Origin: a virus
Taxonomy: Duplodnaviria > Caudoviricetes
Strand: one strand, 5' to 3'
Virus record (IMG/VR): IMGVR_UViG_3300034082_003237
Location: 1-52,935 of that record
DNA: 52,935 nucleotides
A program made the translations under genes and the position numbers. Under the pieces are notes generated by a model. It made no database searches. It was not told where the DNA came from and saw only the letters and a list, made by a program, of their open reading frames with translations. Of the stretch, positions 1 to 14,350 are shown in pieces. How positions within the stretch are numbered: the stretch's first letter is position 1; every line of letters starts with the position of its first letter.

Positions 1-25
1 AAGGTAAATGAGTAATAACAGGTAC

Positions 26-55
26 ATACTAGCCAAACCGATATCAGATTTCCAA
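26..55 (-). promoter_or_regulatory. Conserved early promoter copy 1 (TTGGAA-N18-TAGTAT); its gene lies left of the window
   Basis: -35 at 50-55, -10 at 26-31, spacer carries ATCTGATAT shared with other copies. Confidence 0.8.
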
Positions 56-191
56 AATACCAGCCAAACCCACTTACGGGGCTTACGGGCCATATTGACT
101 GGCATAAGTCAAACCTTTCTTAGGTAAAGCGCGAGCTGGAGCCCCGCATTTTATTTGGGCCGCAGTTGTGACGGGGCCTTTGACAAACAAA

Positions 192-219
192 AGAGCGCCA
201 CCATTTCCGATGACGCTCT
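192..219 (-). terminator. Intrinsic terminator after 224..523
   Basis: AGAGCG...CGCTCT stem followed by a T-tract on the minus strand. Confidence 0.6.
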
Positions 220-223
220 CTTG

Positions 224-523
224 TTAGTTTTTGTTCAGCACTTCTGCAAGGCTGTCAAGAACTTCAAGAACCTTTTGCCTGTTTCCGCCTCTGCACACGC
301 AATCCCAAGCACGGCTAACAGCGTCTTGAACTTCAAAGCTACTTTCAAAGTCATCTTTCCAAATTGTGTCCTTGGAAAACAGAAATATGTTTCGCAACTT
401 AATCCACTCGTCAAAAGTGGTGAAGGTTGCGTAATCATTCCTGAACTTGGTTACCTGCTCAGAGGTAGAGAACACCCTTCCCGTCCAAACCCAAACACAA
501 TCTTTGTCGTCATAGATAAGCAT
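224..523 (-). CDS. Hypothetical early protein, 99 aa
   Basis: ORF with GAAAGGG RBS and its own promoter. Confidence 0.8.
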   Translation of the reverse strand: MLIYDDKDCVWVWTGRVFSTSEQVTKFRNDYATFTTFDEWIKLRNIFLFSKDTIWKDDFESSFEVQDAVSRAWDCVCRGGNRQKVLEVLDSLAEVLNKN

Positions 524-551
524 AATTACCCTTTCAGTAGTAGATATATAT

Positions 552-581
552 ACCTTATCAGACCCAATATCAGATTTCCAA
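552..581 (-). promoter_or_regulatory. Conserved early promoter copy 2 (TTGGAA-N18-TAAGGT)
   Basis: -35 at 576-581, -10 at 552-557. Confidence 0.8.
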
Positions 582-667
582 ATTCAGTTTTAGCCCCGCT
601 TCGACAGCTCAAGCGCTGGGACTTCAGGCCAAATTTCAGCCTGTGCTCCGGGCTGAAACTCGAGCGC

Positions 668-922
668 TCACCAGTTCGAGATATCGACTGCGCCGTGAGG
701 GAAGTTTTCGACGAAACCGGTGGTCCAAATCGAGTTGCCTGTTGGGCACCTGTATGTGTCGAGCTCTCCAAGCCTGTCGAGTATGTGCACCGCGACCTCG
801 TCGCCTTCGACTGCGACCAGGGTGACATGGCCCTCGTGAACCCTGTACGCGCTGTCTCCGGCGCTGATGTATGTTCCAACACGCAGTTTCTCTGCGTCTA
901 CGAGCTGTGGCGTGTACTTCAT
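668..922 (-). CDS. Hypothetical early protein, 84 aa
   Basis: ORF with GAAAGGGG RBS and promoter upstream. Confidence 0.8.
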   Translation of the reverse strand: MKYTPQLVDAEKLRVGTYISAGDSAYRVHEGHVTLVAVEGDEVAVHILDRLGELDTYRCPTGNSIWTTGFVENFPHGAVDISNW

Positions 923-960
923 TTTGTGCCCCTTTCAGTTGGCCTTGCTTCCTGTACAAC

Positions 961-990
961 ACACTACACCACCGGATACCAAATTTCCAA
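961..990 (-). promoter_or_regulatory. Conserved early promoter copy 3 (TTGGAA-N18-TAGTGT)
   Basis: -35 at 985-990, -10 at 961-966, spacer ATTTGGTAT. Confidence 0.8.
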
Positions 991-1005
991 AATGGCCAAG
1001 CCGGG

Positions 1006-1019
1006 CGAACATGTGTTCG
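1006..1019. promoter_or_regulatory. LexA (SOS) box CGAACATGTGTTCG
   Basis: Matches the Gram-positive/actinobacterial CGAAC-N4-GTTCG consensus; 15 bp upstream of the -35. Confidence 0.75.
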
Positions 1020-1077
1020 TACGTGACCGGCAGCCCCGGCTATCCGGTGCGAGCGGCGGGGCTTGCAAAAAATTTTA

Positions 1078-1116
1078 AGGGGTGTAACAGAGTTTTTATT
1101 CTCTGTCACACCCCTT
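1078..1116 (-). terminator. Intrinsic terminator after 1123..1332
   Basis: AGGGGTGTAACAGAG...CTCTGTCACACCCCT hairpin, T-rich tract nearby on the minus strand. Confidence 0.65.
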
Positions 1117-1122
1117 CTGGTT

Positions 1123-1332
1123 CTATTTTTTGGTGATATAGATACTTTCACCTTTTTCCGAAAGAACCAGCGAGAGTTCTTGGCTCTCGGTGTAGTACCA
1201 GATAGTTACATACTTTCCATCAACCTCTAGGCTACGAACCGTTCCAATTTGCTGCTCGGTGTCTCCGCCGCGTGTGAATACAATCTTTTCACCCTCTTTG
1301 AGTGTCTGGACTTCCTTCTCTCTTAGTATCAT
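1123..1332 (-). CDS. Hypothetical early protein, 69 aa
   Basis: ORF with GAAAGGGG RBS and promoter. Confidence 0.75.
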   Translation of the reverse strand: MILREKEVQTLKEGEKIVFTRGGDTEQQIGTVRSLEVDGKYVTIWYYTESQELSLVLSEKGESIYITKK

Positions 1333-1368
1333 GTGCTTCCCCTTTCAAAGGAATCGTTTACAAACACA

Positions 1369-1398
1369 ACTCTACACCACGAAATACCAAATTTCCAA
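1369..1398 (-). promoter_or_regulatory. Conserved early promoter copy 4 (TTGGAA-N18-TAGAGT)
   Basis: -35 at 1393-1398, -10 at 1369-1374. Confidence 0.8.
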
Positions 1399-1413
1399 AA
1401 TACAAAATCAAAG

Positions 1414-1427
1414 CGAACAAGTGTTCG
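1414..1427. promoter_or_regulatory. LexA (SOS) box CGAACAAGTGTTCG
   Basis: CGAAC-N4-GTTCG, again 15 bp upstream of the -35. Confidence 0.75.
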
Positions 1428-1457
1428 TATAGCCCCGGTATGCGGCCAAAAAAAATT

Positions 1458-1494
1458 GGGGGTGTAACAAGGTTTTATCCCTGCCACACCCCCT
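1458..1494 (-). terminator. Intrinsic terminator after 1501..1818, paralogous to 1078-1116
   Basis: GGGGGTGTAACAAGG...CCTGCCACACCCCC hairpin with a T8 tract on the minus strand. Confidence 0.65.
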
Positions 1495-1500
1495 GGGAGT

Positions 1501-1818
1501 TTAGAACTCGTAGGAGTAGTAGTACCTGCGACCGCTCAGGTGAAGTACGGCCCAACTATCCAACGAATCACCAATCTGAACCCACCTTCCGTTTTTGCGG
1601 AGTGTAAAGCAAGCGGTTGGGTTGTTTGGGTTTGGTGTAATTTCCCATTTGTTGCTGTAAGGCTTCGCCCCTTCGGCTGGCTTGACATCATCGCGCTGAA
1701 CGATAATTTTCTTGCCGTTTTCACTGACGAAAACAATCGTTACTGAGTGGGTGTCCACTCCGTTGCTTACGTGTGCGCCGTTTCCGACTACTGGCTTTGT
1801 TTTCTCTTTGGTTTCCAT
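1501..1818 (-). CDS. Hypothetical early protein, 105 aa
   Basis: ORF with AAAAGGGG RBS and promoter. Confidence 0.8.
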   Translation of the reverse strand: METKEKTKPVVGNGAHVSNGVDTHSVTIVFVSENGKKIIVQRDDVKPAEGAKPYSNKWEITPNPNNPTACFTLRKNGRWVQIGDSLDSWAVLHLSGRRYYYSYEF

Positions 1819-1853
1819 TGCGTCCCCTTTCGTGGAACTCGTTTACAAATGAA

Positions 1854-1883
1854 ATCTTACTACACGAAATACCAAATTTCCAA
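1854..1883 (-). promoter_or_regulatory. Conserved early promoter copy 5 (TTGGAA-N18-TAAGAT)
   Basis: -35 at 1878-1883, -10 at 1854-1859. Confidence 0.8.
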
Positions 1884-1954
1884 AATCAGAATTTTTTTAT
1901 ATAGCCCCGGTACACCTCTTTGTAAAAAATTTATGCCGGGGCTTGCAACAAGAA

Positions 1955-1993
1955 ATACCGGGTAGCGTTTGGCTGCAAACACTCTCCGGTATT
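1955..1993 (-). terminator. Intrinsic terminator after 1997..2284
   Basis: ATACCGG...CCGGTAT stem flanked by A/T tracts. Confidence 0.6.
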
Positions 1994-1996
1994 TTT

Positions 1997-2284
1997 CTAG
2001 TAGATGACTACCGAGGCCTTCGTCCACTTGGTGAATGAGTGGATACCGGGGACGCCGTCAATAGTAAGCACGAGGAACTTCCCTGAGTTGCTCCACTTCT
2101 TATTCTCTGCTGCAATCTTGGAAATTGTTCCAGTTGCGTATCCCCACGCTTGCCTCTCACGGGCCGTGGTGTTCTTTCCGAACAGGTGGGCCTCAGTCTC
2201 GCCCGTCACCGTGTTGGTGATATAGCCAACCAGTATCTGGTCGCCGACTTCTAGGTCGCTTATTTTCACCCTTGTTGTTTCCAT
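1997..2284 (-). CDS. Hypothetical early protein, 95 aa
   Basis: ORF with GAAAGGGG RBS and promoter. Confidence 0.8.
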   Translation of the reverse strand: METTRVKISDLEVGDQILVGYITNTVTGETEAHLFGKNTTARERQAWGYATGTISKIAAENKKWSNSGKFLVLTIDGVPGIHSFTKWTKASVVIY

Positions 2285-2312
2285 TACTATCCCCTTTCAG
2301 TTGGATAGGCCA

Positions 2313-2342
2313 ATGGTACAACATCAGATACCAAATTTCCAG
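2313..2342 (-). promoter_or_regulatory. Conserved early promoter copy 6 (CTGGAA-N18-TACCAT)
   Basis: Spacer ATTTGGTAT conserved; -10 at 2313-2318. Confidence 0.7.
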
Positions 2343-2345
2343 ATT

Positions 2346-2510
2346 TCAGCTAAGCCCCGCCCTGGGCGCGACCGAAGCACTTTCTTTCGTCATCAAGTGA
2401 AGCCGAATGTCAAGAAGCAAGTCTTGCATTTCGCTTGACGCGACAAGTTCACGGCTAGAGATGCTTACTAGTGCCTTGTCAAGAAGGGTAATTACGTCTT
2501 TTTCGTTCAT
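2346..2510 (-). CDS. Small hypothetical protein, 54 aa (MNEKDVITLLDKAL...DLLLDIRL), absent from the ORF track
   Basis: ATGA overlap with the stop of 2507..2689; translated by hand. Confidence 0.65.
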   Translation of the reverse strand: MNEKDVITLLDKALVSISSRELVASSEMQDLLLDIRLHLMTKESASVAPRAGLS

Positions 2511-2689
2511 TGTGGGCAGTCCTCGTATGGGTTGTCGTTTTCCTCGTTGTCCTCGCAGGAACAGAAGCCAAACAATTCTACCTGGGTTTCGTGGGTAAGT
2601 TCAGTCAAGTCCTCGTATGACGGCGAGCCACCGAGTTGGTCTATGACAACACTCCAGAAGTCCACGAATAGTTTCTCTTGCGCGTTCAT
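2507..2689 (-). CDS. Small acidic Cys-containing protein, 60 aa
   Basis: ORF packed tightly in the operon. Confidence 0.7.
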   Translation of the reverse strand: MNAQEKLFVDFWSVVIDQLGGSPSYEDLTELTHETQVELFGFCSCEDNEENDNPYEDCPQ

Positions 2690-2692
2690 TGC

Positions 2693-2863
2693 TTACCCGA
2701 ACACGGCGTCATTGTAGATTTCGTCCATATCTTCTTCTTCGTCCTCGTCCTCGTCCTCGTCCTCGTAGTCGGGCTCTACGATATCCAGTTCGGATATCTC
2801 GCCTGCGCTACGGGCTTCATCTGCCATTTCCCATTCAATTCCACTGTCAAAGTAATTCTTCAT
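2693..2863 (-). CDS. Very acidic 56-aa protein (MKNYFDSG...EDEDEDEDEEED), absent from the ORF track
   Basis: GAAAGGGG RBS, first gene after promoter copy 7; translated by hand. Confidence 0.75.
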   Translation of the reverse strand: MKNYFDSGIEWEMADEARSAGEISELDIVEPDYEDEDEDEDEEEDMDEIYNDAVFG

Positions 2864-2899
2864 TTTGTGTCCCCTTTCGTGAGACTTGTTGTTGGTTCT

Positions 2900-2929
2900 A
2901 TCTTAGTGCAGGCGTTAGCAGATTTCCAA
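2900..2929 (-). promoter_or_regulatory. Conserved early promoter copy 7 (TTGGAA-N18-TAAGAT)
   Basis: -35 at 2924-2929, -10 at 2900-2905. Confidence 0.75.
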
Positions 2930-2953
2930 ATCGCCCATAAGCCCCGGGGTGTG

Positions 2954-3286
2954 TTATGCGCACTCTTCCATTACTTCGCCACCGTCAGTAATGCGCAATT
3001 CGCAAGTGTTGTGCGTAGGAAGATAGATAATGTCGCCGATAGCGAGGTCAGTTCCGTACAACCTCACAAGTCTGTTCACTACTTCCATAGTGTTGCCTTC
3101 GCAATTTGTTCGGGCTATCCAATAAAGAGTATCGCCGTCCTTCACTGTTACCGATGCGCCGTTACAAAAGAACTCGGCGTCATCTCTGTTCTGTTTGTTC
3201 AAGTACCCGAATGCGAATACTGACGCAAGTGTTATTGCGATGGTGATGAGTATGGTCTTTGCTGTTCTGTAGGTATGTTCGTTCAT
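2954..3286 (-). CDS. Membrane-anchored LysM-domain protein, ~110 aa
   Basis: N-terminal TM helix; VKDGDTLYWIA...LAIGDIIYLP LysM pattern; RBS before MNEHTY. Confidence 0.8.
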   Translation of the reverse strand: MNEHTYRTAKTILITIAITLASVFAFGYLNKQNRDDAEFFCNGASVTVKDGDTLYWIARTNCEGNTMEVVNRLVRLYGTDLAIGDIIYLPTHNTCELRITDGGEVMEECA

Positions 3287-3312
3287 TGTCTGCCCTTTCG
3301 GTAGGTGATTCA

Positions 3313-3341
3313 AGCATAACCAGTCCAATATCAAATGTCAA
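3313..3341 (-). promoter_or_regulatory. Consensus sigma-A promoter TTGACA-N17-TATGCT
   Basis: Canonical hexamers and spacing upstream of the LysM gene. Confidence 0.7.
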
Positions 3342-3379
3342 CGATACCCGTGCGGGGCTATTTCGAGGTAATTCCCGAT

Positions 3380-3409
3380 TTGGAAATTTGGTATTTGGTC
3401 TTGTATGCT
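3380..3409 (+). promoter_or_regulatory. Conserved early promoter copy 8 (TTGGAA-N18-TATGCT)
   Basis: TTGGAAATTTGGTATTT on the + strand, drives the rightward operon. Confidence 0.8.
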
Positions 3410-3438
3410 TGTCTTATCCACGAGAAAAGGGGAAAGAA

Positions 3439-3555
3439 ATGAAAGTATCTACTAAAGCAAAGTGCGTAGAGTGTGAGCGAGTTTTTGACCTGATGGACGA
3501 AGAGCAGGCAGGCGAGTTTTACTACGGCCACGATTGCGAAAGCGAAGGGCAATGA
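3439..3555 (+). CDS. Small Zn-finger-like protein, 38 aa
   Basis: AAAAGGGG RBS; CxxC...HxC motif. Confidence 0.65.
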   Translation: MKVSTKAKCVECERVFDLMDEEQAGEFYYGHDCESEGQ

Positions 3556-3719
3556 GCAAGAACATCATCTGCCCTACCTGTAGTGGCTTTATTCCTAACG
3601 GACACACACCAGGTTTATATCCAGGTGCCATCTCTAGGAAAGACAACAAAACAGAGATTTGTTCTCAATGTGGCGATAACGAGGCAATGGAAGATTTCTT
3701 CCGTATGATGAAGAAATGA
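3552..3719 (+). CDS. Small Zn-ribbon protein, 55 aa
   Basis: CPTC...CSQC; ATGA overlaps at both ends. Confidence 0.7.
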   Translation: MSKNIICPTCSGFIPNGHTPGLYPGAISRKDNKTEICSQCGDNEAMEDFFRMMKK

Positions 3720-4090
3720 GCGACACACCTAACAAGCAATTTAACGATGTATTCGTAGGCAAAGAATATGACCATTGGAAAGAGATAGGGGAACAGCGAG
3801 GCTGGGAGAGCGGGGCTAAAAGCGCCACCCGTGCCGATATTCAGCAAGCACTTGAGGAGATGGACGAAAGCACTTTGCTTATGGATGGCTTTGACGAAGC
3901 CTTTATCGGTTGGTCACGCCGTATCAACGAGCCACTACTTGCCGTCTATTCCTATGACGGACTAATTAAGGTTTGTACCGAGCGAGATGGTATGAGTTTT
4001 GAGGAAGCCGTTGAGTATGTGGACTACAATGTCGTAGGTGCTTGGATTGGCGAGCAGACACCAATTATCGTGATGCCGTTTATTCACTAA
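3716..4090 (+). CDS. Conserved phage hypothetical protein, 124 aa
   Basis: DGFDEAFIG...EEAVEYVDYNVVGAWIGEQTP pattern familiar from aquatic phages. Confidence 0.8.
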   Translation: MSDTPNKQFNDVFVGKEYDHWKEIGEQRGWESGAKSATRADIQQALEEMDESTLLMDGFDEAFIGWSRRINEPLLAVYSYDGLIKVCTERDGMSFEEAVEYVDYNVVGAWIGEQTPIIVMPFIH

Positions 4091-4107
4091 TCTACTATTG
4101 AGGTAAA

Positions 4108-4422
4108 ATGACAGCATTAGCAGTAAGAGTTAGCGCACCACCGACAGGCGATATCCCCTGTAGCGGGAAACAGTATTTGTTCTACGGCAAGAATGCGGAG
4201 AGACCGCAGTCACGAGTCCGCCGTGAAGAAAAAGCAAAGAAAGTTTGCTCTAATTGTCCGCAAATTATTTTGTGCCGTGATTACGCCCGTAGCAACAACG
4301 AGATTTTTGGCGTTTGGGGCGGAGAGACGGAGATAGAAAGATACAACGCAGGTTTTATGAAAGACTTGCCGCAACACCTGAGCAGAAACAGCGGTATTCT
4401 GAAACGCAATGAGCACTTATAA
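4108..4422 (+). CDS. whiB: WhiB-family Fe-S transcription factor
   Basis: C-x(n)-CxxC-x5-C and GVWGG. Confidence 0.9.
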   Translation: MTALAVRVSAPPTGDIPCSGKQYLFYGKNAERPQSRVRREEKAKKVCSNCPQIILCRDYARSNNEIFGVWGGETEIERYNAGFMKDLPQHLSRNSGILKRNEHL

Positions 4423-4633
4423 CGAGTTTCTAGCGATGGTTTCTATCTACTATGAGCGACAACTAGTAGAGGGTGGAGATTTGCGCTATGGGCAGATGTA
4501 TATGAATCACCTGTGGGATGTCAAGCCTCGCATTGCGGAGAAACTAAACGGCTCTCTACTTGACCCGTTCTATAGAGACAATTGCCCGCCGAAAGTTCAC
4601 GAGTTCGTAGAACAACTTTGGTCTAGCGAGTAG
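4409..4633 (+). CDS. Hypothetical protein, 74 aa
   Basis: LRYGQ...DPFY motif; overlaps the whiB end. Confidence 0.75.
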   Translation: MSTYNEFLAMVSIYYERQLVEGGDLRYGQMYMNHLWDVKPRIAEKLNGSLLDPFYRDNCPPKVHEFVEQLWSSE

Positions 4634-4769
4634 GACAGCAAGAAGAGCGGCGTGGTTTCTGAACAACCCGTGCAGGCTTTTCTTCCTCTTTCTTTTTCTT
4701 TTTATCGTCAGTATCCATACACCAAGGATACACCTTGCGTTTGATAGCAAGCCCCGCTAAGATAGTGGT

Positions 4770-4967
4770 ATGAGCCTTCCACCACTTTTTGAGTGCGTTG
4801 TATGCGGTTTCTCAATAGACCCAAACGCCAACAACTCTCTTCGCTTGGCTACTGTTTGGCTAAAGGGTGGAGGAAAGACGGTTCATGCGGTTGAATCTGA
4901 GGCTTTCCGGTACAGGCACAACTTTTGCAACCTGAGCGGTGATTTCAACCAAGACAGTTTGTTCTAG
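4770..4967 (+). CDS. Small Zn-finger-like protein, 65 aa
   Basis: CxxC...HxxC. Confidence 0.6.
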   Translation: MSLPPLFECVVCGFSIDPNANNSLRLATVWLKGGGKTVHAVESEAFRYRHNFCNLSGDFNQDSLF

Positions 4968-5206
4968 CCAAGCCTCATTGAACCGAGTGGCTGATTGGTC
5001 TCGCCAAGTGTCTTGCCAGCAGTATTGTTTGTGACAGCAACCCGAGCGTCAAGGTTGTTGAGTATCACCTGAACTGCGTCAAGTTTCTTATTTATTTCAT
5101 CAACGGAGTTCATTACCGACTTCATTGCTTGTTCTAAAGATGCATCTATTTCCATAGCGCCCAGCCTAGCAAGTATGATGAGCCAGTGAGACTTTATCTT
5201 GACCAC
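4964..5206 (-). CDS. Hypothetical coiled-coil protein (true start probably the internal MEIDAS)
   Basis: Heptad-like ORF convergent with 4770..4967. Confidence 0.5.
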   Translation of the reverse strand: MVKIKSHWLIILARLGAMEIDASLEQAMKSVMNSVDEINKKLDAVQVILNNLDARVAVTNNTAGKTLGETNQPLGSMRLG

Positions 5207-7108
5207 GACCTACTAGCCCTTGACTTTCCGTACGACCCAGCGCAGGTGGCTGAGGTTAAAGCTATAGCCGGGGCTGCGTGGGACAAGGTGGACAAACTGT
5301 GGAAGGCACCCGTGGCCTCGATTAACGAGGTGCGAGCATTCGCTATGAAGCACGAGTTTCAGATAACAGACGAAGTGCTTAGGTTTACTGCGCCAAAGAG
5401 AGCATCACGAAAGGGTGTATATGTAAAGGGCGATTGGACATACATCCAATTCCCATACGACAAGGTTGTACTCAAGGCGGTGAAGCAAATTCCCGGAATT
5501 ACTTGGGATAACAAGGAGATGGCGTGGAGAGCGCCACTTACCTCATCCAGTGAGGCGATTGCGTGGGCTAACTCATTTGACGTGCTTGTATCGCCGGAAG
5601 TTCACGGTGTTTCTGCGTCAATAGGCAAGAAGTTAGACGAACTTAAAGAAGCATCACGCTCGACAGACGCTGACATAGAAGTGCCCTTGCTACAAGGAAC
5701 GCTGCTGCCCTATCAGAGAGCAGGCGTGGAGTATGCGTCTAAAGCCCGTAGAAGTTTTATCGCAGACGAGATGGGGCTTGGAAAGACAATACAGGCGATT
5801 GCGACACTGGAGTATTCGTCAAAGGACAGCGAGGTGTACCCAGCAGTCGTTGTCTGCCCACCATCTCTTGTCCTCAACTGGAAGTCGGAGTGGAATAGAT
5901 GGCTACCCCACAGACGGGTTGCTGTTGTAACCAACCGGCGAGAGATACCTGAGCCCCGGACGTACGATGTGCTGGTTGTCGGCTACTCAAACATCCCTCA
6001 CTGGGAAAAGCAACTGCTTGCGCACAATTCTTACATATTCGACGAATCACATTACGCAAAGAGCCCAACGGCGCAGCGTACTAAGTCGGCTATCAAGATG
6101 GCAAAGAGCGCACCAAAACATGGAATAGTTTTATGCCTTACCGGGACACCCGTAACGAACAGACCGGCAGAGTACGCCAGCCAATTAGACATAATCGGAA
6201 AACTCAAAGAGTTCGGTGGGCTGTGGGGTTTCTATAGAAGGTACTGCTCTGCCTTCCAAGACCGGTTCGGGCAGTGGAACATCAATGGGCATTCACACTT
6301 GGATGAACTCAACGACCGGCTTCGTGGAACTTGCTACATCAGACGCACCAAATCACAGGTGCTATCCGAACTGCCACCGGTAATACACAGCCAACTCGTT
6401 GTTGAGGGTACTGAGGCGGGGCTCAAGGAATACCGCAAGGCAGAACAAGACATCATAAAGTACATAACCGACAGAGCCAAAGAGATAGCGATAGAACTCG
6501 GTGAGAGCCCGTACTCGGCGGCCGTTGTGGCGAGAATAAAAGCAGAAAGTAACGAACATCTCGTTAGGTTGTCTGTTTTGAGGAGACTGTCAGCGAAAGC
6601 AAAGATGCCGATGGTTGAGGAGTGGGTTCAGTCACGCATTGACGACGGCAAGAAGGTGGTAGTCGCCGCTCACCACAGAGACATTGTTGACGAATTGGCA
6701 AGAAAGTTCGGCAACTTGCGTATTCAGGGCGGAATGTCGGTTGAGGAGGTAGAAGCACAGAAGGCAAGGTTCCAAGATGAACCCGTAGAGACTGCGCCAG
6801 TCATTGTGTTGTCTATTCAGGCAGCCAAGACAGGGCACACGCTCACTTCAGCACAGGACATTTTGTTCGTGGAATTACCGTGGACACCATCCGACTTAGA
6901 CCAAACATTTAGTCGCCTACATAGAATTGGTCAAAAAGGAAGCGTCACGGCTACTTATATGCTTACTGACAACACGATAGACCAAGAGATTTATGCACTT
7001 ATTGAGAAAAAACGCAAGGTAGTGAACGCTGCGACAGAAGGTGGGGAGTTTGCTGCTAGTGGTGGCGCTACACAATTAGTGCTTGACTTGCTCAACCGAC
7101 ACAGATAA
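5186..7108 (+). CDS. SNF2-family helicase with two N-terminal HARP-like repeats
   Basis: DEMGLGKT Walker A, DESH box, TGTP, helicase C motif (SRLHRIGQ); repeated FPYD...K.I.G..WD...W. Confidence 0.9.
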   Translation: MRLYLDHDLLALDFPYDPAQVAEVKAIAGAAWDKVDKLWKAPVASINEVRAFAMKHEFQITDEVLRFTAPKRASRKGVYVKGDWTYIQFPYDKVVLKAVKQIPGITWDNKEMAWRAPLTSSSEAIAWANSFDVLVSPEVHGVSASIGKKLDELKEASRSTDADIEVPLLQGTLLPYQRAGVEYASKARRSFIADEMGLGKTIQAIATLEYSSKDSEVYPAVVVCPPSLVLNWKSEWNRWLPHRRVAVVTNRREIPEPRTYDVLVVGYSNIPHWEKQLLAHNSYIFDESHYAKSPTAQRTKSAIKMAKSAPKHGIVLCLTGTPVTNRPAEYASQLDIIGKLKEFGGLWGFYRRYCSAFQDRFGQWNINGHSHLDELNDRLRGTCYIRRTKSQVLSELPPVIHSQLVVEGTEAGLKEYRKAEQDIIKYITDRAKEIAIELGESPYSAAVVARIKAESNEHLVRLSVLRRLSAKAKMPMVEEWVQSRIDDGKKVVVAAHHRDIVDELARKFGNLRIQGGMSVEEVEAQKARFQDEPVETAPVIVLSIQAAKTGHTLTSAQDILFVELPWTPSDLDQTFSRLHRIGQKGSVTATYMLTDNTIDQEIYALIEKKRKVVNAATEGGEFAASGGATQLVLDLLNRHR

Positions 7109-7127
7109 GCCCCGGCCGTCTAGTACT

Positions 7128-7157
7128 TTGGAAATTTGGTATTTGGTGTACTAAGCT
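7128..7157 (+). promoter_or_regulatory. Conserved early promoter copy 9 (TTGGAA-N18-TAAGCT)
   Basis: TTGGAAATTTGGTATTTGGT identical to copy 8. Confidence 0.8.
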
Positions 7158-7195
7158 TGCGTTGCCGCAAGGCAAACAAGCCCAAATGAAAGGGG

Positions 7196-7381
7196 GTGAG
7201 CAAAATGGAAGAGTGGCAAAAGGAGGGTTTCGCTTCAGAGGAGGAATTCTTTGAGTTGCAGCGAAGCATCTGCGAGCAGGAACAGCGGGCGGAATTCATT
7301 ATGAGTTACGTCGCTGGTGGTGGCTTGTCAAGCGAAGCTCAAATCGCTTGGTTTCACCACAACCACTCGTGGGGCGAGTAA
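7196..7381 (+). CDS. Small acidic hypothetical protein (likely start ATG at 7205)
   Basis: GAAAGGGGG RBS downstream of promoter copy 9. Confidence 0.65.
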   Translation: MSKMEEWQKEGFASEEEFFELQRSICEQEQRAEFIMSYVAGGGLSSEAQIAWFHHNHSWGE

Positions 7382-7442
7382 CCCACAGAGGCGGGGGCTG
7401 GGGCTGGCAACCCTTGCCCCTCGCCTGCGCGTGTGGCGGGGC

Positions 7443-7865
7443 TTACTCGGTTTTTTGGGTTGGAACTCTGCCCATTAGTTCGTCAGCAATTAGTTTTGCG
7501 TACTTTCTGCGTAACTTCCAAATCTTTTGATTCATTTCGGCCATTGCGCTTGTGCTCCGTGCCTTTTTTATTGACTCAATGTCGTAAACACCGTACTTTT
7601 TGAAGAGAATGTCGTCAATGTCGTTGTTTTCTATCAGAATGTCGGAAATCCAGTGGCCACGCTTATCTATGCTCATCAGCATTTCGCAGAGACCTTCGTA
7701 ACCGAACTCGTCATAGACACGATTAGTTACTAAGTCGCAGAAGTGGGCGCGATACATTGTTTCTGCTTCTGCGGTGTGGGTCATGAACTCGCTCAGCCAT
7801 ACAGCAAGCTCTTCCCTTGAGGGGATATCGCCGTCTTCGCCATCAAACTCAAAGTCTTCGTCCAT
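7443..7865 (-). CDS. Hypothetical protein, 140 aa
   Basis: ORF, acidic N-terminus. Confidence 0.75.
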   Translation of the reverse strand: MDEDFEFDGEDGDIPSREELAVWLSEFMTHTAEAETMYRAHFCDLVTNRVYDEFGYEGLCEMLMSIDKRGHWISDILIENNDIDDILFKKYGVYDIESIKKARSTSAMAEMNQKIWKLRRKYAKLIADELMGRVPTQKTE

Positions 7866-7921
7866 AAGCCTGCCTTCCGCTATACCGGGGCTCTAGTAGT
7901 CAATGATACTTGCGACAACTG

Positions 7922-8947
7922 TCAAGCCAGCGACAGGATAACTTCTTGTGCTAATACTTTCTTTTGCGTCACCCATGAATTGTTATTCATTGAAGCGAGC
8001 GCGCGCTCATCTGCTTTTGCATCACGATAATGGTCAAGGTATTCAGCAATAGCGTTGTATGCACTCCATCCGTTGTACCCGTAGCCACCGGCATTTCGCT
8101 CATTGTCATAGACTCCACGAACAAGCGCTACTACTCCATCACGGTTTTTCTTTTGTCTATCCGTACCGTTTGATTCTCCCGGAAACACCTTGTCAAGTAT
8201 CGTTGCTAGTTGCGCACTTCGTGGTGGAACCTTTACGGCTAGCAAACGATTCGCTGTCAGTTGGAATGACTTAGCCCACTCAGTTGATATTTCTAGAACT
8301 TTTTGCGATTCCTCTATAGCGCTATCTGCGTTACGAGTATGCCGGGCGGTGAACACCCGGCGAGCAGATGCCTGACCGGCAATTACCGTGTTCTTACATA
8401 CCGCACGAATTGAGGTATTGGCAAACGTAATCGCTGTCTTGCCATCGTGACCATTGCGAACCAGTAGGTAACGGTCTATCTTGTCGTTGATACCCGTGGG
8501 GTCAATGACGAGAGCGCCCAAGTCAAGCGAACTAAAGAACTCTCTGCCTTCGTCAAGCACGCCACAAGTGTCCACTACTGCGTCTCCCTTGGAAGCCCCG
8601 ACTATTGCGAGGGCGTAGTCCAAGCACTCACGGTTTTGCTGTACCACATAGCGAGTGCCTACGGTGGCCAGTCCGTCAAAGGTGCCATCAGGGTTCACTC
8701 TTACTGTCGCTCGGCTGTCTTTGATGAGAATCGGTGTGCCGTCAGGATTTCTAATCAAACTGCCATCAGCGTCAACGACTGCGACCTTCGTTGTAACCAC
8801 GTCAAAGTCAGCCTGCGCTGCCTGAAGCATCGCCTCTGCTGTCTGCAAGCCCTTCATAGGCACTCCTAGGCGGTGCCATGGCACTTCACGGTCTGCATAA
8901 GCCATCTTTGCTACGCCCTTAGTGTCTGTCTCCAGCATATGCGCCAT
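7922..8947 (-). CDS. DUF932-family phage/plasmid protein
   Basis: MAHMLE...PWHRLG, Y.VVQN, NGHDG, IRAVCKNT, W.AYNA..EY.DH motifs. Confidence 0.9.
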   Translation of the reverse strand: MAHMLETDTKGVAKMAYADREVPWHRLGVPMKGLQTAEAMLQAAQADFDVVTTKVAVVDADGSLIRNPDGTPILIKDSRATVRVNPDGTFDGLATVGTRYVVQQNRECLDYALAIVGASKGDAVVDTCGVLDEGREFFSSLDLGALVIDPTGINDKIDRYLLVRNGHDGKTAITFANTSIRAVCKNTVIAGQASARRVFTARHTRNADSAIEESQKVLEISTEWAKSFQLTANRLLAVKVPPRSAQLATILDKVFPGESNGTDRQKKNRDGVVALVRGVYDNERNAGGYGYNGWSAYNAIAEYLDHYRDAKADERALASMNNNSWVTQKKVLAQEVILSLA

Positions 8948-9052
8948 AACTTCGTGCCTCTCGCTCTTACTTCCAGTTAGATTTATCTAAAGGAAAGCAT
9001 ACACTCACCCTCCGCTCTATAGTGGATGGCGGGGCTGCATCGACACAGCAAA

Positions 9053-9078
9053 AGGGGCAGGCTGTGATACCTGCCCCT
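9053..9078 (-). terminator. Intrinsic terminator after 9092..9310
   Basis: AGGGGCAGG...CCTGCCCCT hairpin with a T-tract on the minus strand. Confidence 0.6.
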
Positions 9079-9091
9079 CGCTCTCGCTGTG

Positions 9092-9310
9092 TTAGATGTA
9101 TTCGTTATTCAGCCAGTCATCATTCGACTTGGTGGCTGTGAACTCACCAAACAATTGGCGAGCATATGGGGCGACAATCTCAGCACCTCGCTTTACCGTC
9201 TGAAACTGCGTTACCTTTCTGCCTGCCTTGTATCCAATGGCACTACCTGCGCCAAAGGATACGACCGCTGTGAACATCATCAACACCATCGTTACCAATA
9301 TCGTGGTCAT
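9092..9310 (-). CDS. Small membrane protein, 72 aa
   Basis: Hydrophobic N-terminus; GAAAGGGAG RBS. Confidence 0.75.
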   Translation of the reverse strand: MTTILVTMVLMMFTAVVSFGAGSAIGYKAGRKVTQFQTVKRGAEIVAPYARQLFGEFTATKSNDDWLNNEYI

Positions 9311-9349
9311 TTTTTCTCCCTTTCAGTTGAGAACTTCCTTACACCTGTA

Positions 9350-9378
9350 AGTATAGGGACATTTGTAGTCCCTGTCAA
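9350..9378 (-). promoter_or_regulatory. Consensus sigma-A promoter TTGACA-N17-TATACT
   Basis: Canonical hexamers and spacing. Confidence 0.7.
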
Positions 9379-9390
9379 GTCACCCGTAGG

Positions 9391-9663
9391 CTACCCGTGG
9401 AACCTTATTTCTTGCCCCACTTGGATTACTTGACCGTACTTCGCTACTAGGTCATCGGTTGCCTTCAGCGTGTTGCCTTGACACCACTTGACTGCGAGAC
9501 CGCTTAGCGTGTCGCCTTCTTGGGCAATCACTCGGTCAATATCGCAACGATAACTCTCATCGCCTCGCATTGCGACAATCATTGCGAATATCACAACGAG
9601 AAACACCAACGGGAGTGTGATTAGGTCACGCCTGTTTGTTCGGTTTGTGTGGTACTTGTTCAT
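9391..9663 (-). CDS. Membrane-anchored LysM-domain protein, paralog of 2954..3286
   Basis: TM helix; QEGDTLSGLA..C.GNT...L...YG..I.VG. Confidence 0.8.
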   Translation of the reverse strand: MNKYHTNRTNRRDLITLPLVFLVVIFAMIVAMRGDESYRCDIDRVIAQEGDTLSGLAVKWCQGNTLKATDDLVAKYGQVIQVGQEIRFHG

Positions 9664-9850
9664 TGCCTGCCCCTTTCAGTAGGTACTAATTACACTAGGG
9701 TAGTTTGTGTCACAGGTCAAGCATTTGCGAGCCTTATGGGCATTGGGTTTCACCCGTAGGGCTACCCGTGGGCACTGCGCCAACTTCATAAGCATTGGTA
9801 GGTGGCAAGGTGGGTGTGCTATGACACTGTATGCCGGGGCTTATGGCCTG

Positions 9851-10210
9851 CTATTGCTTAGGTGCGACTATCCACTCTCCACCACTAGCAAACACTGTCT
9901 CTCCCTCGAGCGTGCTTGACCATGCGTAGTTACAGCAAGGCTTCGCTTCGTATGGACTATGGTGACCGCCACTCTCTATCGACTTGGCTAGCAGTGGGAA
10001 GGTATCAAGAAACTTCACAACGCAATCGTGGCAGATACTCCATGACCTCGGCTCATCATCAGCCATCAACGCTTCGAGGTTGTCAGTGAAACCAGCATAG
10101 AAACCAAAGTGTTCATAGGGCAAGTACCAGCCACCATCTATCGTTTTTGCTGTAGGCATACTGGCCTGCCTCGCTTGACCACAAGCGTCACACTTCACTG
10201 CGTTGCTCAT
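9851..10210 (-). CDS. Cys-rich hypothetical protein, 119 aa
   Basis: CDAC...CHDC; overlaps the upstream stop. Confidence 0.75.
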   Translation of the reverse strand: MSNAVKCDACGQARQASMPTAKTIDGGWYLPYEHFGFYAGFTDNLEALMADDEPRSWSICHDCVVKFLDTFPLLAKSIESGGHHSPYEAKPCCNYAWSSTLEGETVFASGGEWIVAPKQ

Positions 10211-10500
10211 AGTGCGTACTCTCCTCGCTTCATTCGGTAGTGCGCCACTAGGTCATCACTACTGTTACTGCAAGGTGACCACACTACGTCTGCTTCGGTG
10301 AAGGTATCATCGAGCCTCAAGTGGACTACGACATAGTCGAGGGCATCGTCAGCGTGCCATGCGATATACCTCATGCAACCAACGAGGGTAGAGCGATACT
10401 CGAAGTGTTCAGGTAGGTCATAGCGACACATCGACCATGCATCACCATACGAGGGACATTCCACTACTGCGTACCTGCGTGTATCTTTCTCTACTCTCAT
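10207..10500 (-). CDS. Hypothetical protein, 97 aa
   Basis: ORF in operon. Confidence 0.65.
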   Translation of the reverse strand: MRVEKDTRRYAVVECPSYGDAWSMCRYDLPEHFEYRSTLVGCMRYIAWHADDALDYVVVHLRLDDTFTEADVVWSPCSNSSDDLVAHYRMKRGEYAL

Positions 10501-10634
10501 GGGGTAGGCGTATCTCTTGACGCCCGTATGCCACCCGTGCGCCTTGCGTTAGTCATTGTCTCTCAACTTCATAGCAAAGTACATCAGTGCCAATGCCACT
10601 AGGCACATAAGTTCCAAGACTCTATCGCCGTTCA

Positions 10635-10820
10635 TCACTCATAATCTACTGCGTCATCGTTGCTGTTAGCGAGGCTGAACTTGGGCATAACGAATAGCGT
10701 GTTGCCTATGCTGTAGGCGTTACGACTTGCGTTGTAGATAGCGTCAGGGAACAAGCGAACCAAGTCAATCGCTGTCAATGGCGTATCGCTTAGGTGAACT
10801 ATGTTTCGTATTCGTGCCAT
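10635..10820 (-). CDS. Hypothetical protein, 61 aa
   Basis: ORF in operon. Confidence 0.55.
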   Translation of the reverse strand: MARIRNIVHLSDTPLTAIDLVRLFPDAIYNASRNAYSIGNTLFVMPKFSLANSNDDAVDYE

Positions 10821-10837
10821 CGTCGTTGTCGTTCGCT

Positions 10838-11062
10838 TTACTTGGTGCTAGCGACTACGTTTGCGTAGTAAATGTCATCGCACCACTCGGACAACTTAGC
10901 CAAGTCGGCAACCAACGAACCTTGAGTGTCGAGCAATACCCGCAACCCATCGGGCAGCGTTTGCGAATTGCTGTCACCATTGCGCGCTATGCGCTGTATC
11001 GCCCTTGCTAGTTCCCAAGCGAATTTCGATACGTCAGTGAAGTTGTTTGGATTAGATACCAT
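10838..11062 (-). CDS. Hypothetical protein, 74 aa
   Basis: AAAGGGG RBS; first gene after promoter copy 10. Confidence 0.7.
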   Translation of the reverse strand: MVSNPNNFTDVSKFAWELARAIQRIARNGDSNSQTLPDGLRVLLDTQGSLVADLAKLSEWCDDIYYANVVASTK

Positions 11063-11091
11063 AATGTCCCCTTTGTGTAGTAGTTATCACA

Positions 11092-11121
11092 ATACTAGCA
11101 CATCGAATACCAGATTTCCAA
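11092..11121 (-). promoter_or_regulatory. Conserved early promoter copy 10 (TTGGAA-N18-TAGTAT)
   Basis: -35 at 11116-11121, -10 at 11092-11097. Confidence 0.8.
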
Positions 11122-11139
11122 AGGGGTAAGCGGGGCTCT

Positions 11140-11154
11140 TCGAACACCTGTTCG
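11140..11154. promoter_or_regulatory. LexA (SOS) box TCGAACACCTGTTCG
   Basis: CGAAC-N4-GTTCG about 19 bp upstream of the -35. Confidence 0.75.
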
Positions 11155-11209
11155 CCCTTGGTGAGCACCCGTTTACCAAATTTTTAGGATTGCCGTATCT
11201 TAAATAGAT

Positions 11210-11842
11210 TTATCTAAAGCGGCTCTTAGAGGTCTTCTTCTTGGCTTTTGACGCCAGGTAGGCATCCATGTCGTCTATGCGTGTCACAAGCTCTCGTATG
11301 CTCGTCCAGTCAGCCTTATCGCCTAAGTGCATGGCCGCCGTTTTAAGCTCCCAGCGCATGTCTGAGTCGAATCCCATGTCGATGAGTTTGATATGAATCT
11401 TGTTGAGGTCGTATATGACGATTGGCGATGAGGTGCCGTATCTAAAGTGCTCTCGTATTTCGCTAGATAGTTCTGCATAGTTGCCCTGCACATGTATGAC
11501 CTGCTCCGGATTCATGAGGTCCATTGCTATGTATCCATATGGCTCATCCATCTTGCTGAGAACGACTGGCATGAGTCCCCTCATTTTCTGGGCACCAAAA
11601 CCAGCTTCTTCTAACTGTCCAAGGAGTAGAACAATGAAGCATCCTTCATAGGTGAAGCTTCTGTCATAGCCTGAGACACCTGTCTGTATGTAGGCAGGGG
11701 GGATAAACCCTTCTTTAATCCAGTTATCGAAAGTCTTGAACTGAATCTCGGTGTAAAAGGAGAGCTCTTGCAGTGTGAGTGTAAGAGTTTGTTTCTTTTG
11801 TAGATGGAGAGCTTTGATTCTCTCTGTTTCCATTAGTGCCAT
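11210..11842 (-). CDS. MerR-like HTH DNA-binding protein, 210 aa
   Basis: LTLQELS...TFDNWIKEGFIP...G..RSFT pattern. Confidence 0.65.
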   Translation of the reverse strand: MALMETERIKALHLQKKQTLTLTLQELSFYTEIQFKTFDNWIKEGFIPPAYIQTGVSGYDRSFTYEGCFIVLLLGQLEEAGFGAQKMRGLMPVVLSKMDEPYGYIAMDLMNPEQVIHVQGNYAELSSEIREHFRYGTSSPIVIYDLNKIHIKLIDMGFDSDMRWELKTAAMHLGDKADWTSIRELVTRIDDMDAYLASKAKKKTSKSRFR

Positions 11843-12038
11843 TGTGTTGTTCCTCTAGGTGTAAATATAACAGATGCCTTGGAAATCCAGGATAAATTTA
11901 ACTAGAAAGTGCGCGCCGTTTTTATGCCAGTTCGGATTGCTGGCTGGCTATAAATATAGCGCAAGTCGTTAATGCTGTTTAAATTTATCCAATAGAGGGC
12001 TAAAAATAAAAAAATCGCGGGGAAAGCCGTCGCCTAGA

Positions 12039-13597: not shown

Positions 13598-13607
<10 letters not shown>

Positions 13608-14350
13608 TCTTTTGCAAATTCTATAGATGTTTTGATTAGCCTGGAAAACTGTTCTATGCCCATCCAACTTAAACTTATCCTTTGATTGCAAAAATCATTT
13701 AACACTCGGTAGCTGAGTTCTTTATCCGACTCCCACCAGGATGTATCAATTGCTTCTTTTGAAAAAACACACTCCTTGGGCCCCCATGATGAAAAATCGT
13801 TATAGAAAACTTTTACATTCAACAATGTTGTTGGGGGGAATTTACGATAAATCTGCCAGCGAAATTCATCGTTGCTCGACTCGTTTAAATTACAGGAGTG
13901 GCACAATAGCCCTCGTATAAGTCCGCTTTCGTGGCAGTGGTCCATTACGATTTTAGAGTCATCGAATCCGCACATCGCACAGCGGTTTTCTTGCCAGCCC
14001 CATAACTCGTCCAAACCTTCCGAGCCCTCTAATAGCGAAGCTTTTTGGTCCCATCTTTCAGTATTGTGCTGCCATTGCAAATAAGCTGGTTGCGGTCGGT
14101 CGGTCGGTCGAAGATGTTCGGCATGTTTAAACTTTTTTTCTGTTTCATACAACCCTGCCATTGCACCATAATTCGAGTAATCACCCAGTGAGGAAATACG
14201 GTTTTTATTTTTTTCCCTATACTGCAAAGCCTCAAATAAGCTTGCTTCTTTTTTGGTTCTAAAAGTTTTAGCGATTTGCTTTCCGCTCGTATCGCGATAC
14301 TTAACTTGATAGGAGGTTCCCCGTTTGCCTACGCGCTTGTGAATACTCAT
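13598..14350 (-). CDS. Integrase Arm-type DNA-binding domain fused to an endonuclease VII domain
   Basis: MSIHKR...YQVKYRD..GKQ..KTF.TKKEA; Q..RCAMCG...DHCH.SG.IRGLLC.SCN. Confidence 0.8.

Follow-up and report, generated by a model that had tools for sequence, protein, structure and literature searches.

AGCCCCG heptamers in a putative takeover gene block of lake-water phages: a candidate array of protein-binding sites coupled to a putative phage promoter family

The gene block and its repeated word

The IMG/VR record IMGVR_UViG_3300034082_003237 (Caudoviricetes) consists of 52,935 nucleotides (nt), which are analysed here in full and referred to as the window. It is a single 52.9-kb contig and represents a genome fragment; an open reading frame (ORF) runs off its right end. 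The left part of the window carries a block of mostly small genes in which the seven-base word AGCCCCG recurs. All 23 exact copies of this heptamer (11 on the plus strand and 12 on the minus strand) lie inside 77-11137 and none lies in 11138-52935, exactly as in the original prediction, which was made from the letters of the window; the inverted pairs 1032/1057 and 1903/1937 that it had pointed out were recovered as well.

The genes of the block run leftward in 224-3286 and 7443-11062 and rightward in 3439-7381. They encode many small proteins without homologues, together with WhiB, LysM proteins, a Snf2-type helicase and DUF932, and the part of the block that extends past the window in relatives encodes DUF3846, DUF1281_C and an AAA_5 ATPase. 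The WhiB gene indicates an actinobacterial host, and from its gene content the block would be an early host-takeover or anti-defence region. Most of the small array proteins had no match in Pfam or PHROGs, and most small genes of 224-2863 are without homologue in sister clades. Many genes of the block have the ribosome site GAAAGGGG. Ten boxes of the form TTTGGAAATYTGRTAT-N9-TAnnnT, about 35 nt each, precede most small genes of the window and are putative promoters, with TTGGAA as the -35 hexamer, an 18-nt spacer and TAnnnT as the -10 hexamer. A phage-specific factor may also read this box, since its 16 conserved bases far exceed what a -35 element requires. Canonical terminators (stems of 15-16 base pairs (bp), followed by T8 or more) end the genes upstream of heptamers. 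On the transcribed strand, the order is thus a gene, a terminator with its T-run, a heptamer or heptamer pair, sometimes an SOS-like palindrome, a promoter box, a ribosome site and the next gene.

The number and sharpness of the heptamers set this word apart. In 100 dinucleotide shuffles of the whole window it occurred 4.01 times on average (standard deviation 1.83, maximum 9), which scales to about 0.85 per 11.1 kb, and it is the top region-specific 7-mer of the window (23 copies versus 0). The array shows no excess of one-mismatch variants (of the 64 in the window, 9 fall in its first 12 kb), so the word is extremely sharp and all seven positions are effectively invariant. Beyond these seven, only position +8 is informative, being C or G in 84% of 284 distinct sites from 11 loci. 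The spacing is also regular, as had been predicted: after sites less than 100 nt apart had been merged, the coefficient of variation of the gaps was 0.39, compared with 0.77 ± 0.15 for random placement, and 0 of 5000 simulations were equally regular. None of the 40 population-variant places listed, with 81 others outside the list, falls in a heptamer, a result without power given that 0.6 were expected by chance; two of the places listed, 75 and 85, flank the heptamer at 77-83.

Relatives were found with the helicase gene at 5186-7108, which gave 33 related loci in viral contigs. The heptamer is present in 30 of these, at helicase identities down to 67% and G+C contents of 43-62%, and is missing in three (L030, L031 and L032). 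One relative, G004, is a complete record of 160,449 bp with a 127-bp terminal overlap and a helicase 93% identical to that of the window. All of its 57 heptamers are located in 78,805-113,001, which is one internal block of about 34 kb, and its 27 copies of the TTTGGAAATYTGRTAT-N9-TAnnnT box (78,864-107,226) are all within that block. By synteny, position 1 of the window corresponds to about 90.7 kb of G004, so that about 22 kb of the array is missing past the left end of the window. By this comparison the window appears to carry the last 11 kb of the heptamer block. The "first 11.2 kb" originally given as its extent is therefore bounded on the left by an assembly edge where the contig end cuts the array, and not by a biological limit. 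The related idea that the array abuts a genome terminus, as first-step-transfer DNA would, has lost its basis, because the G004 array lies mid-record, at 78.8-113.0 kb. The confinement itself stands, with a single block in each relative examined (Table 1). Outside the array G004 has no heptamer, versus 3.4-8.3 expected under Markov orders 0-4 and 1.0 under order 5, which suggests that the word is avoided outside the block.

Among the sequencing runs listed, 20 contain the phage; all are of lake-water DNA and none is of RNA. A near-identity DNA search of window positions 1-12000 against cultured phages gave no match, and the relatives in protein searches were all below 60% identity. A scan of viral contigs for heptamer pairs with 17-18 nt between the arms gave mostly single chance matches; apart from these it added only a few more fragments with an array, which belong to this phage group. 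In the literature, nothing on AGCCCCG arrays in phages was found among the titles and abstract openings listed, supplementary files not being covered by that search, nor on phage early promoters with conserved intergenic inverted repeats.

Promoter coupling, orientation and copies inside genes

The position of the intergenic heptamers is set relative to the promoter boxes. In the window, each of the eight boxes that matched the regular expression is preceded by a heptamer at a distance of 16-48 nt from the -35 hexamer (start to start), and for the two variant boxes, 2324-2349 and 2898-2932, a hand count gives 17 nt. With four clades pooled, a heptamer occurs at most 140 nt upstream in 91 of 106 promoters and at most 75 nt upstream in 83 of them. 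The promoter boxes differ among clades that share the identical heptamer. In three clades the distances from heptamer to a fixed promoter anchor fall into the classes 15-16, 23-26, 34-37, 46-47, 55-57 and 67-68, which places the heptamer centre near -40, -50, -60, -71, -81 and -92 relative to the inferred start. The 69 distances from these clades gave a Rayleigh R of 0.83 at 10.5 bp, compared with a maximum of 0.41 for random distances. On these non-independent data, the pattern is clear in the three clades (R 0.82-0.94 at 10-10.5 bp), weaker in the L026 clade (0.65-0.69) and absent in the L029 clade. Spacers of one length class are just 33-42% identical, so their length is conserved and their sequence is not, and the same classes are occupied by heptamers of either orientation. 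By these positions the intergenic heptamers are tightly coupled to what appears to be a phage-specific promoter family. The original description of the word as a spacing signal "rather than a promoter element" is not supported in this respect, as every regex-matched promoter of the window carries it upstream and it is phased in three clades.

Orientation of the heptamer is unrelated to the direction of transcription. Among the 17 unpaired sites of the window, hand-counted on the coding strand, 10 read CGGGGCT and 7 AGCCCCG, and the two strands are nearly balanced both in the window as a whole (11/12) and in G004 (28/29). Where heptamers are paired, a preferred arrangement exists: across 11 partly redundant loci, the relatives have 65 convergent pairs (AGCCCCG-loop-CGGGGCT) and 4 everted ones. 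L029 has 14 pairs, and in 13 the arms are separated by exactly 17 nt. In the clade of 62% G+C to which L029 and L028 belong, every cassette has two further conserved boxes: AATAAAGATAGC, in 22-27 copies, precedes the heptamer pair, whose spacing there is strictly N17, and GAATAGGTGGCGAGACAGC lies between this pair and a GCTAACA...TGGTAnGCT promoter. Several genes of this clade look leaderless.

Five of the 23 heptamers are inside genes (3811, 5269, 5952, 6417 and 8594), in agreement between the original prediction and the gene calls, and a sixth at 7108 overlaps the helicase stop codon. The helicase copies could be compared in ten orthologues with 79-100% protein identity, in which third codon positions are only 46-63% identical to the window and just 37 of 1913 7-mer windows are invariant. 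The heptamer at helicase offset 83 is present in all ten. The residue before it varies (Ala, Ser or Pro), always with a codon ending in C, and the following Gly-Ala is always encoded as GGG GCT; clades without this heptamer encode the same Gly-Ala as GGA GCG, GGC GCT or GGT GCA. Three in-gene heptamers share this device of a C-ending codon followed by Gly-Ala. At offset 766, the protein has Glu-Pro-Arg where the heptamer is present and Glu-Ser-Gly or others elsewhere. The in-gene heptamers are thus under selection and kept via codon choice amid diverged synonymous sites. Conservation of in-gene copies at synonymous positions in relatives had been put forward as a check of the original prediction. 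Such conservation is seen for the helicase copies (8-10 of 10 orthologues), most clearly at offset 83, and less so for the copy in the DUF932 gene (4 of 10).

The GCGAACAnnTGTTCG palindrome listed in Table 1 resembles the GAAC-N4-GTTC SOS (LexA) box of Gram-positive and actinobacterial hosts. It was also seen in relatives, in one of them inside the loop of a heptamer pair. Two near-consensus promoters (TTGACA-17-TATnnT) fall outside the box family, namely 3313-3341 on the minus strand, with a heptamer 18 nt upstream, and 9350-9378 on the minus strand, with none. In window positions 2640-3016, and especially at 2730-2770, summed contig depth in other runs reached 712 and 154, and loose ends are numerous; contigs of unrelated organisms seem to be drawn there by a short coding stretch of acidic repeats. 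Downstream of the array the window has ordinary phage genes, including those for an endonuclease VII domain protein (13598-14350), an SLT lysozyme-like protein (15881-16594) and ribonucleotide reductase (24081-26006).

Table 1. Coordinates of the heptamers and associated features in the window, with the heptamer blocks of four relatives
Feature	Position	Strand	Remarks
Leftward promoter boxes (putative)	24-58, 550-584, 959-993, 1367-1401, 1852-1886, 2324-2349, 2898-2932, 11090-11124	-	
Rightward promoter boxes (putative)	3379-3411, 7127-7159	+	
Intrinsic terminator	1077-1116	-	16-bp stem plus T-run; precedes heptamer pair on transcribed strand
Second intrinsic terminator	1458-1493	-	Precedes heptamer 1431 on transcribed strand
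SOS-box-like palindrome GCGAACAnnTGTTCG	1003-1019, 1413-1429, 11141-11157		Between heptamer and promoter
Heptamer	77-83	-	Everted pair with copy at 140; upstream of promoter box 24-58
Heptamer	140-146	+	One-mismatch partner 22 nt downstream
Single heptamer	592-598	+	17 nt (start to start) upstream of -35 of promoter box 550-584
Convergent heptamer pair	1032-1063	1032+ / 1057-	18-nt loop; between terminator 1116-1077 and SOS-like box plus promoter 959-993
Single heptamer	1431-1437	+	Between terminator 1493-1458 and SOS-like box plus promoter 1367-1401
Convergent heptamer pair	1903-1943	1903+ / 1937-	27-nt loop; upstream of promoter 1852-1886
Single heptamer	2353-2359	+	17 nt (hand count) upstream of variant promoter box 2324-2349
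Single heptamer	2940-2946	+	17 nt (hand count) upstream of promoter box 2898-2932
Single heptamer	3353-3359	-	Between divergent promoters: 18 nt from TTGACA at 3341 (-), 27 nt from box at 3379 (+)
In-gene heptamer	3811-3817	-	Gene 3716-4090, codons AGC GGG GCT; kept in four closest relatives
Heptamer	4750-4756	+	In spacer of putative leaderless promoter TTGCGT-N17-TAAGAT of gene 4770-4967
In-gene heptamer	5269-5275	-	Helicase offset 83; 10/10 orthologues
In-gene heptamer	5952-5958	+	Helicase offset 766; 8/10 orthologues
In-gene heptamer	6417-6423	-	Helicase offset 1231; 9/10 orthologues
Heptamer	7108-7114	+	Overlaps helicase stop codon; 20 nt upstream of -35 of promoter box 7127-7159
Heptamer	7437-7443	-	3' arm of hairpin plus T-run, between convergent genes
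Intergenic heptamer	7886-7892	-	Directly upstream of gene 7443-7865; kept in 5 relatives, flanks diverged
In-gene heptamer	8594-8600	+	DUF932 gene, codons GTC GGG GCT; 4/10 orthologues
Intergenic heptamer	9030-9036	-	Upstream of gene 7922-8947
Intergenic heptamer	9835-9841	-	Between genes 9851-10210 and 9391-9663
Last heptamer	11131-11137	-	16 nt upstream of -35 of promoter box 11090-11124; adjoins SOS-like box
CxxC...HxxC protein, 65 amino acids	4770-4967	+	Precedes helicase in all clades, including heptamer-less one; second candidate binder
MerR-like protein, 210 amino acids	11210-11842	-	N-terminal MerR/excisionase-like helix-turn-helix at array boundary; candidate binder
Heptamer block of G008	Last 17.4 kb		27/27 heptamers; 100-kb record
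Heptamer block of G011	10.2-42.3 kb		56/56 heptamers; 90-kb record
Heptamer block of G009	31.9-55.3 kb		26/26 heptamers; 58-kb record
Heptamer block of G010	0.5-21.5 kb		37/37 heptamers; 31.6-kb record

A putative operator array, its possible readers and other explanations

We propose, at roughly even odds (a probability of about 0.5), that the AGCCCCG array is a dispersed array of upstream sites or operators for a sequence-specific binder of duplex DNA, which would control the host-takeover gene block. The reading as a protein-binding-site array was already part of the original prediction and is kept here as the best one, given that the word is sharp, confined to one block and coupled to promoters, with in-gene copies that are selected. 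A dedicated protein, probably phage-encoded, would recognize AGCCCCG in duplex DNA. The word would mark a block of small and separately transcribed genes, each forming a terminator-heptamer-promoter cassette with a strong ribosome-binding site, and the promoter-proximal heptamer would sit on a single side of the helix, from which an activator or co-regulator could contact RNA polymerase. The additional single copies inside genes would hold the site density at about one per 450-700 bp, by which the bound protein could act cooperatively and switch the block on or off as a unit. That a protein reads the word and that it affects transcription are both inferences; as to the sign of the effect, we lean towards activation or recruitment.

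Several observations weigh against this proposal. Firstly, the phasing is not general. The L026 clade has 14 distances, of 22-23, 30-31, 34 and 41 (R 0.65 at 10.5 bp), and in the high-G+C L029 clade the heptamer pair is 64-90 nt from the -10 hexamer without distance classes and with another conserved box in between. The phasing statistics moreover overstate independence, because the cassettes are paralogous and the genomes related, and the promoter assignment was itself read from sequence. Secondly, the excess of convergent pairs (about 65 to 4) is not predicted by independent binding of monomers; a dimer able to span variable distances, or an origin from an ancestral cassette with paired sites, might lie behind it. 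Thirdly, a seven-position word without any tolerated variant is sharper than most transcription-factor sites and recalls enzyme sites. Lastly, the in-gene copies and those far from promoters (9835 and 9030) would need an auxiliary role, and in 6 of 10 orthologues synonymous changes have removed the DUF932 copy (8594), so not all copies are firmly kept.

Three possible readers of the word were considered. The MerR-like protein at the array boundary, which the original prediction had named, is one candidate. The Atlas places it beside clusters in which 23-40% of members have MerR_1, and its helix-turn-helix (HTH) is well kept at 42% overall identity. Its gene borders the array in two clades, and no further clade emerged when distant homologues were sought with a profile. 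There was no relevant match to it in Pfam, PHROGs or a PDB sequence search. It was not found in G005, a heptamer-less relative that covers the syntenic place, but this presence-absence pattern is common to many other genes. Neither the MerR-like protein nor the HTH segment of the polyvalent protein described below was found in G008, G009 and G010, which is uninformative because these contigs cover the other side of the array.

Another candidate is the HTH of sigma-region-4 type in a polyvalent protein that is presumably targeted to the capsid. In G004 this protein (L162, 33055-43746) has 3563 amino acids, with a prohead protease S78 domain at its start, UvrD, the sigma-70 region 4 HTH (25.0 bits, cut-off 24.1), ArdC-N, a zincin peptidase and WYL. 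The last ORF of the window, 48108-52934 on the minus strand, is cut by the contig end and corresponds to the C-terminal approximately 1,600 residues. In G011, repeated HTH modules were seen in the frame of the polyvalent protein. More speculatively, the 65-residue CxxC...HxxC protein could be the reader. In the window and its two closest relatives a heptamer sits in the spacer of the putative leaderless promoter of its gene, where TAAGAT 7 nt before the ATG suggests a leaderless mRNA, and a heptamer is directly upstream of the gene in four more loci (L016, L171, L026 and L033). It had no Pfam match at E values up to 1.

Whichever protein is involved, the related phage fragment G005 (locus L032) speaks for a reader that is encoded by the phage and changes along with its sites: it shares many genes of the block, has no heptamer, and its small genes are preceded by another box, AATCCGGAGAA-N3-CGCA-N6-TAAGAT, in at least 20 copies that often form divergent pairs.

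A bolder version of the proposal, to which we give a distinctly smaller chance, is that the heptamer is a genomic address label, which would gather about 34 kb and some 30 promoters of takeover and anti-defence genes into one cooperative nucleoprotein domain. The reader protein may then arrive with the DNA, and the block would be fired, and later silenced, as a unit. The word would be kept at one per 700 bp or denser even inside genes and avoided elsewhere. If true, it would represent a chromatin-like level of control not described for phages.

An unlikely alternative is a mark on the DNA that serves an enzyme or motor and not transcription, through modification, nicking, restriction-like recognition, or the loading or guiding of a translocase or nuclease; the word would set the takeover block apart, and the parS, Chi, KOPS and first-step-transfer ideas of the original prediction belong here. 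Absolute invariance at seven positions without near-variants is typical of enzyme recognition words, the density is regular with in-gene copies held by codon choice, and the word is apparently avoided outside the block (0 versus 3.4-8.3 expected in G004). The genome also encodes DUF1599, which is associated with nucleotide modification (E value 5.7e-5, below the cut-off of Pfam), and the ArdC-bearing polyvalent protein. However, a DNA mark does not predict phased promoter distances in three clades, no methyltransferase or nickase is linked to the word, and the array lies mid-record and not at the assembled end of the complete relative. The balanced orientations (11/12 and 28/29) oppose polar signals, so that the Chi and KOPS analogies fail. 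The parS analogy is not supported either, since the heptamer is non-palindromic, 7 bp long and variably spaced in pairs, compared with a palindrome of 13-16 bp (no search for a ParB gene was made).

It seems quite unlikely that the functional unit is a hairpin, AGCCCCG-loop-CGGGGCU, formed in RNA or as a cruciform and acting as a back-up terminator, insulator or element of RNA stability or processing, with single heptamers as decayed remnants. Such a hairpin would fit the prevalence of convergent pairs in relatives, the uniform pairs of L029 with the short pyrimidine tracts that follow them, the location of pairs at gene ends next to terminators, and site 7437, the 3' arm of a hairpin with a T-run behind it. 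Against this, the arms never covary and are invariant across clades of 43-62% G+C, and the 65 distinct loops (17-79 nt) fold like shuffled loops (mean z -0.18), with no extra base pair beyond the arms in 38 of them. A test of the pairs as intrinsic terminators failed, as the loops are at least 17 nt long and the T-run belongs to a separate upstream hairpin, 7437 being the sole exception; in the low-G+C clades the T-run comes before the pair on the transcribed strand. Remnants should include many one-mismatch variants and none are in excess. All 17 unpaired sites of the window are exact, yet for 15 of them the 90 nt downstream contain no partner that differs at fewer than two positions, which does not exceed background, and single in-gene copies are under selection. 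The heptamer thus appears to act at the level of DNA and not of RNA, as originally suggested: its orientations are split 10/7, terminators precede it, and the loops lack selected folding.

Early promoters must work before any phage protein exists, which counts for a site borrowed from the host, i.e., one for a conserved actinobacterial transcription factor or RNA-polymerase-associated factor that would let the early promoters fire at entry. Heptamer centres near -40 to -92 on one helix face would suit an activator meeting RNA polymerase, and the identical word in phages of 43-62% G+C would fit a factor conserved across hosts. We nevertheless consider a host reader very unlikely. Counts in a single actinobacterial genome show no over-representation of the word (362 copies versus 675 of a control word). 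Among 61 actinobacterial genomes, none of which is known as the phage host, the N17 pair occurs once each in 4 (one of them the unpublished G028) and the control in 7. The heptamer-less G005, with its shared genes and other box, fits a phage-borne reader better.

The least likely explanation, for which we see very little chance, is that heptamers are crossover or recognition points for cassette shuffling, comparable to integron attC sites or to the PeSL of T4-like phages, which are modules of terminator and early promoter described as recombination substrates (PMC4122927), and that recombination keeps a hyperplastic array uniform: the composite terminator and promoter repeated between small, variable and poorly conserved genes of a plastic region do match PeSL regions (PMC4122927), and the small genes of 224-2863 mostly lack homologues in sister clades, but 7 bases are too short for homologous exchange, for which the longer promoter boxes are likelier substrates, no recombinase is linked to the word (no search for one was made), and neither in-gene copies nor helical phasing are predicted. 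As far as the cited description of PeSL goes, it names no invariant short word, in-gene copies or helical phasing (PMC4122927), and the match concerns the surroundings of the heptamer and not the word as such. In other lake runs, contigs do join promoter copies, 991 to 1371 and 3405 to 7125, which would agree with shuffling, but the sides of these joints are shorter than 30 nt and were flagged unreliable. The joints skip 379 and 3719 bases and are either cassette-loss variants or assembler jumps across repeats.

Comparison with known systems and significance

The closest described case, judging from the part of its description that concerns the repeat, is the 17-bp repeat of Cluster O mycobacteriophages, TGTTCGG-NNN-CCGAACA, which has no known function and occurs more than 30 times, about one in three copies being inside a gene (PMC4351075). 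Like the heptamer, it belongs to actinophages and has two invariant 7-bp inverted arms in dozens of copies, many of them intergenic, with uneven density over the genome and an orientation not tied to transcription (PMC4351075). The heptamer differs in arm sequence and in the distance between arms (17-79 bp versus a fixed 3 bp). Also, about half of its copies are single arms, it is confined to one block and its position is set relative to a promoter family. Compared with the actinophage repeats described so far, single-arm use, one-block confinement, promoter phasing and codon-level selection are what is new in this array.

As for the proposed mode of action, class I activator sites of CAP are located at -61.5, -71.5, -82.5 and -92.5, on one helix face in steps of about 10.5 bp, and the Ogr proteins of the P2 type are small zinc-finger activators acting near -55. 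Such sites resemble the heptamer in being upstream and on one helix face, and they suggest small zinc proteins of phages as one kind of reader to consider. They are dyad-symmetric and degenerate, and the heptamer is neither. Conserved inverted repeats in the early region of phiC31 may be a further parallel. The KorB operators of RK2 fall into classes that adjoin promoters, lie distant from them or are inside genes, and give co-ordinated control of the genes of a mobile element. They are a dozen or more near-identical sites for one regulator, which is similar to the heptamer array (PMC11790492). However, they are 13-bp palindromes read by a ParB-type CTP-dependent clamp, unlike the non-palindromic 7-bp heptamer.

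Stoperators of Cluster A phages were among the analogies of the original prediction. In the relevant part of the published account these are asymmetric 13-bp sites whose orientation follows transcription and to which a monomeric HTH repressor binds (PMC9283540). As with the heptamer, an actinophage has over 20 of these asymmetric, highly conserved sites, located in short gaps between genes (PMC9283540). They differ in being 13 bp long, genome-wide and strictly oriented, whereas the heptamer has 7 bp (plus the weak +8), one block and free orientation; also, the heptamer is upstream of promoters and stoperators are in the path of elongation (PMC9283540). The analogy fails on orientation, given the 10 to 7 split among unpaired sites.

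Large uncultured lake actinophages are known almost solely as gene lists. The array gives a testable regulatory grammar of their early programme, composed of cassette, terminator, invariant word and phased promoter. The block that it would govern is rich in gene kinds of anti-restriction and establishment regions (WhiB, DUF932, DUF3846 and the ArdC-bearing polyvalent protein). Dispersed invariant repeats without known function have been noted in several actinophage clusters, and promoter phasing, codon-level selection inside genes and avoidance elsewhere are first clues to how such repeats might work. For actinobacterial genetics, the seven-base word and the protein that reads it would in addition make a compact orthogonal switch.

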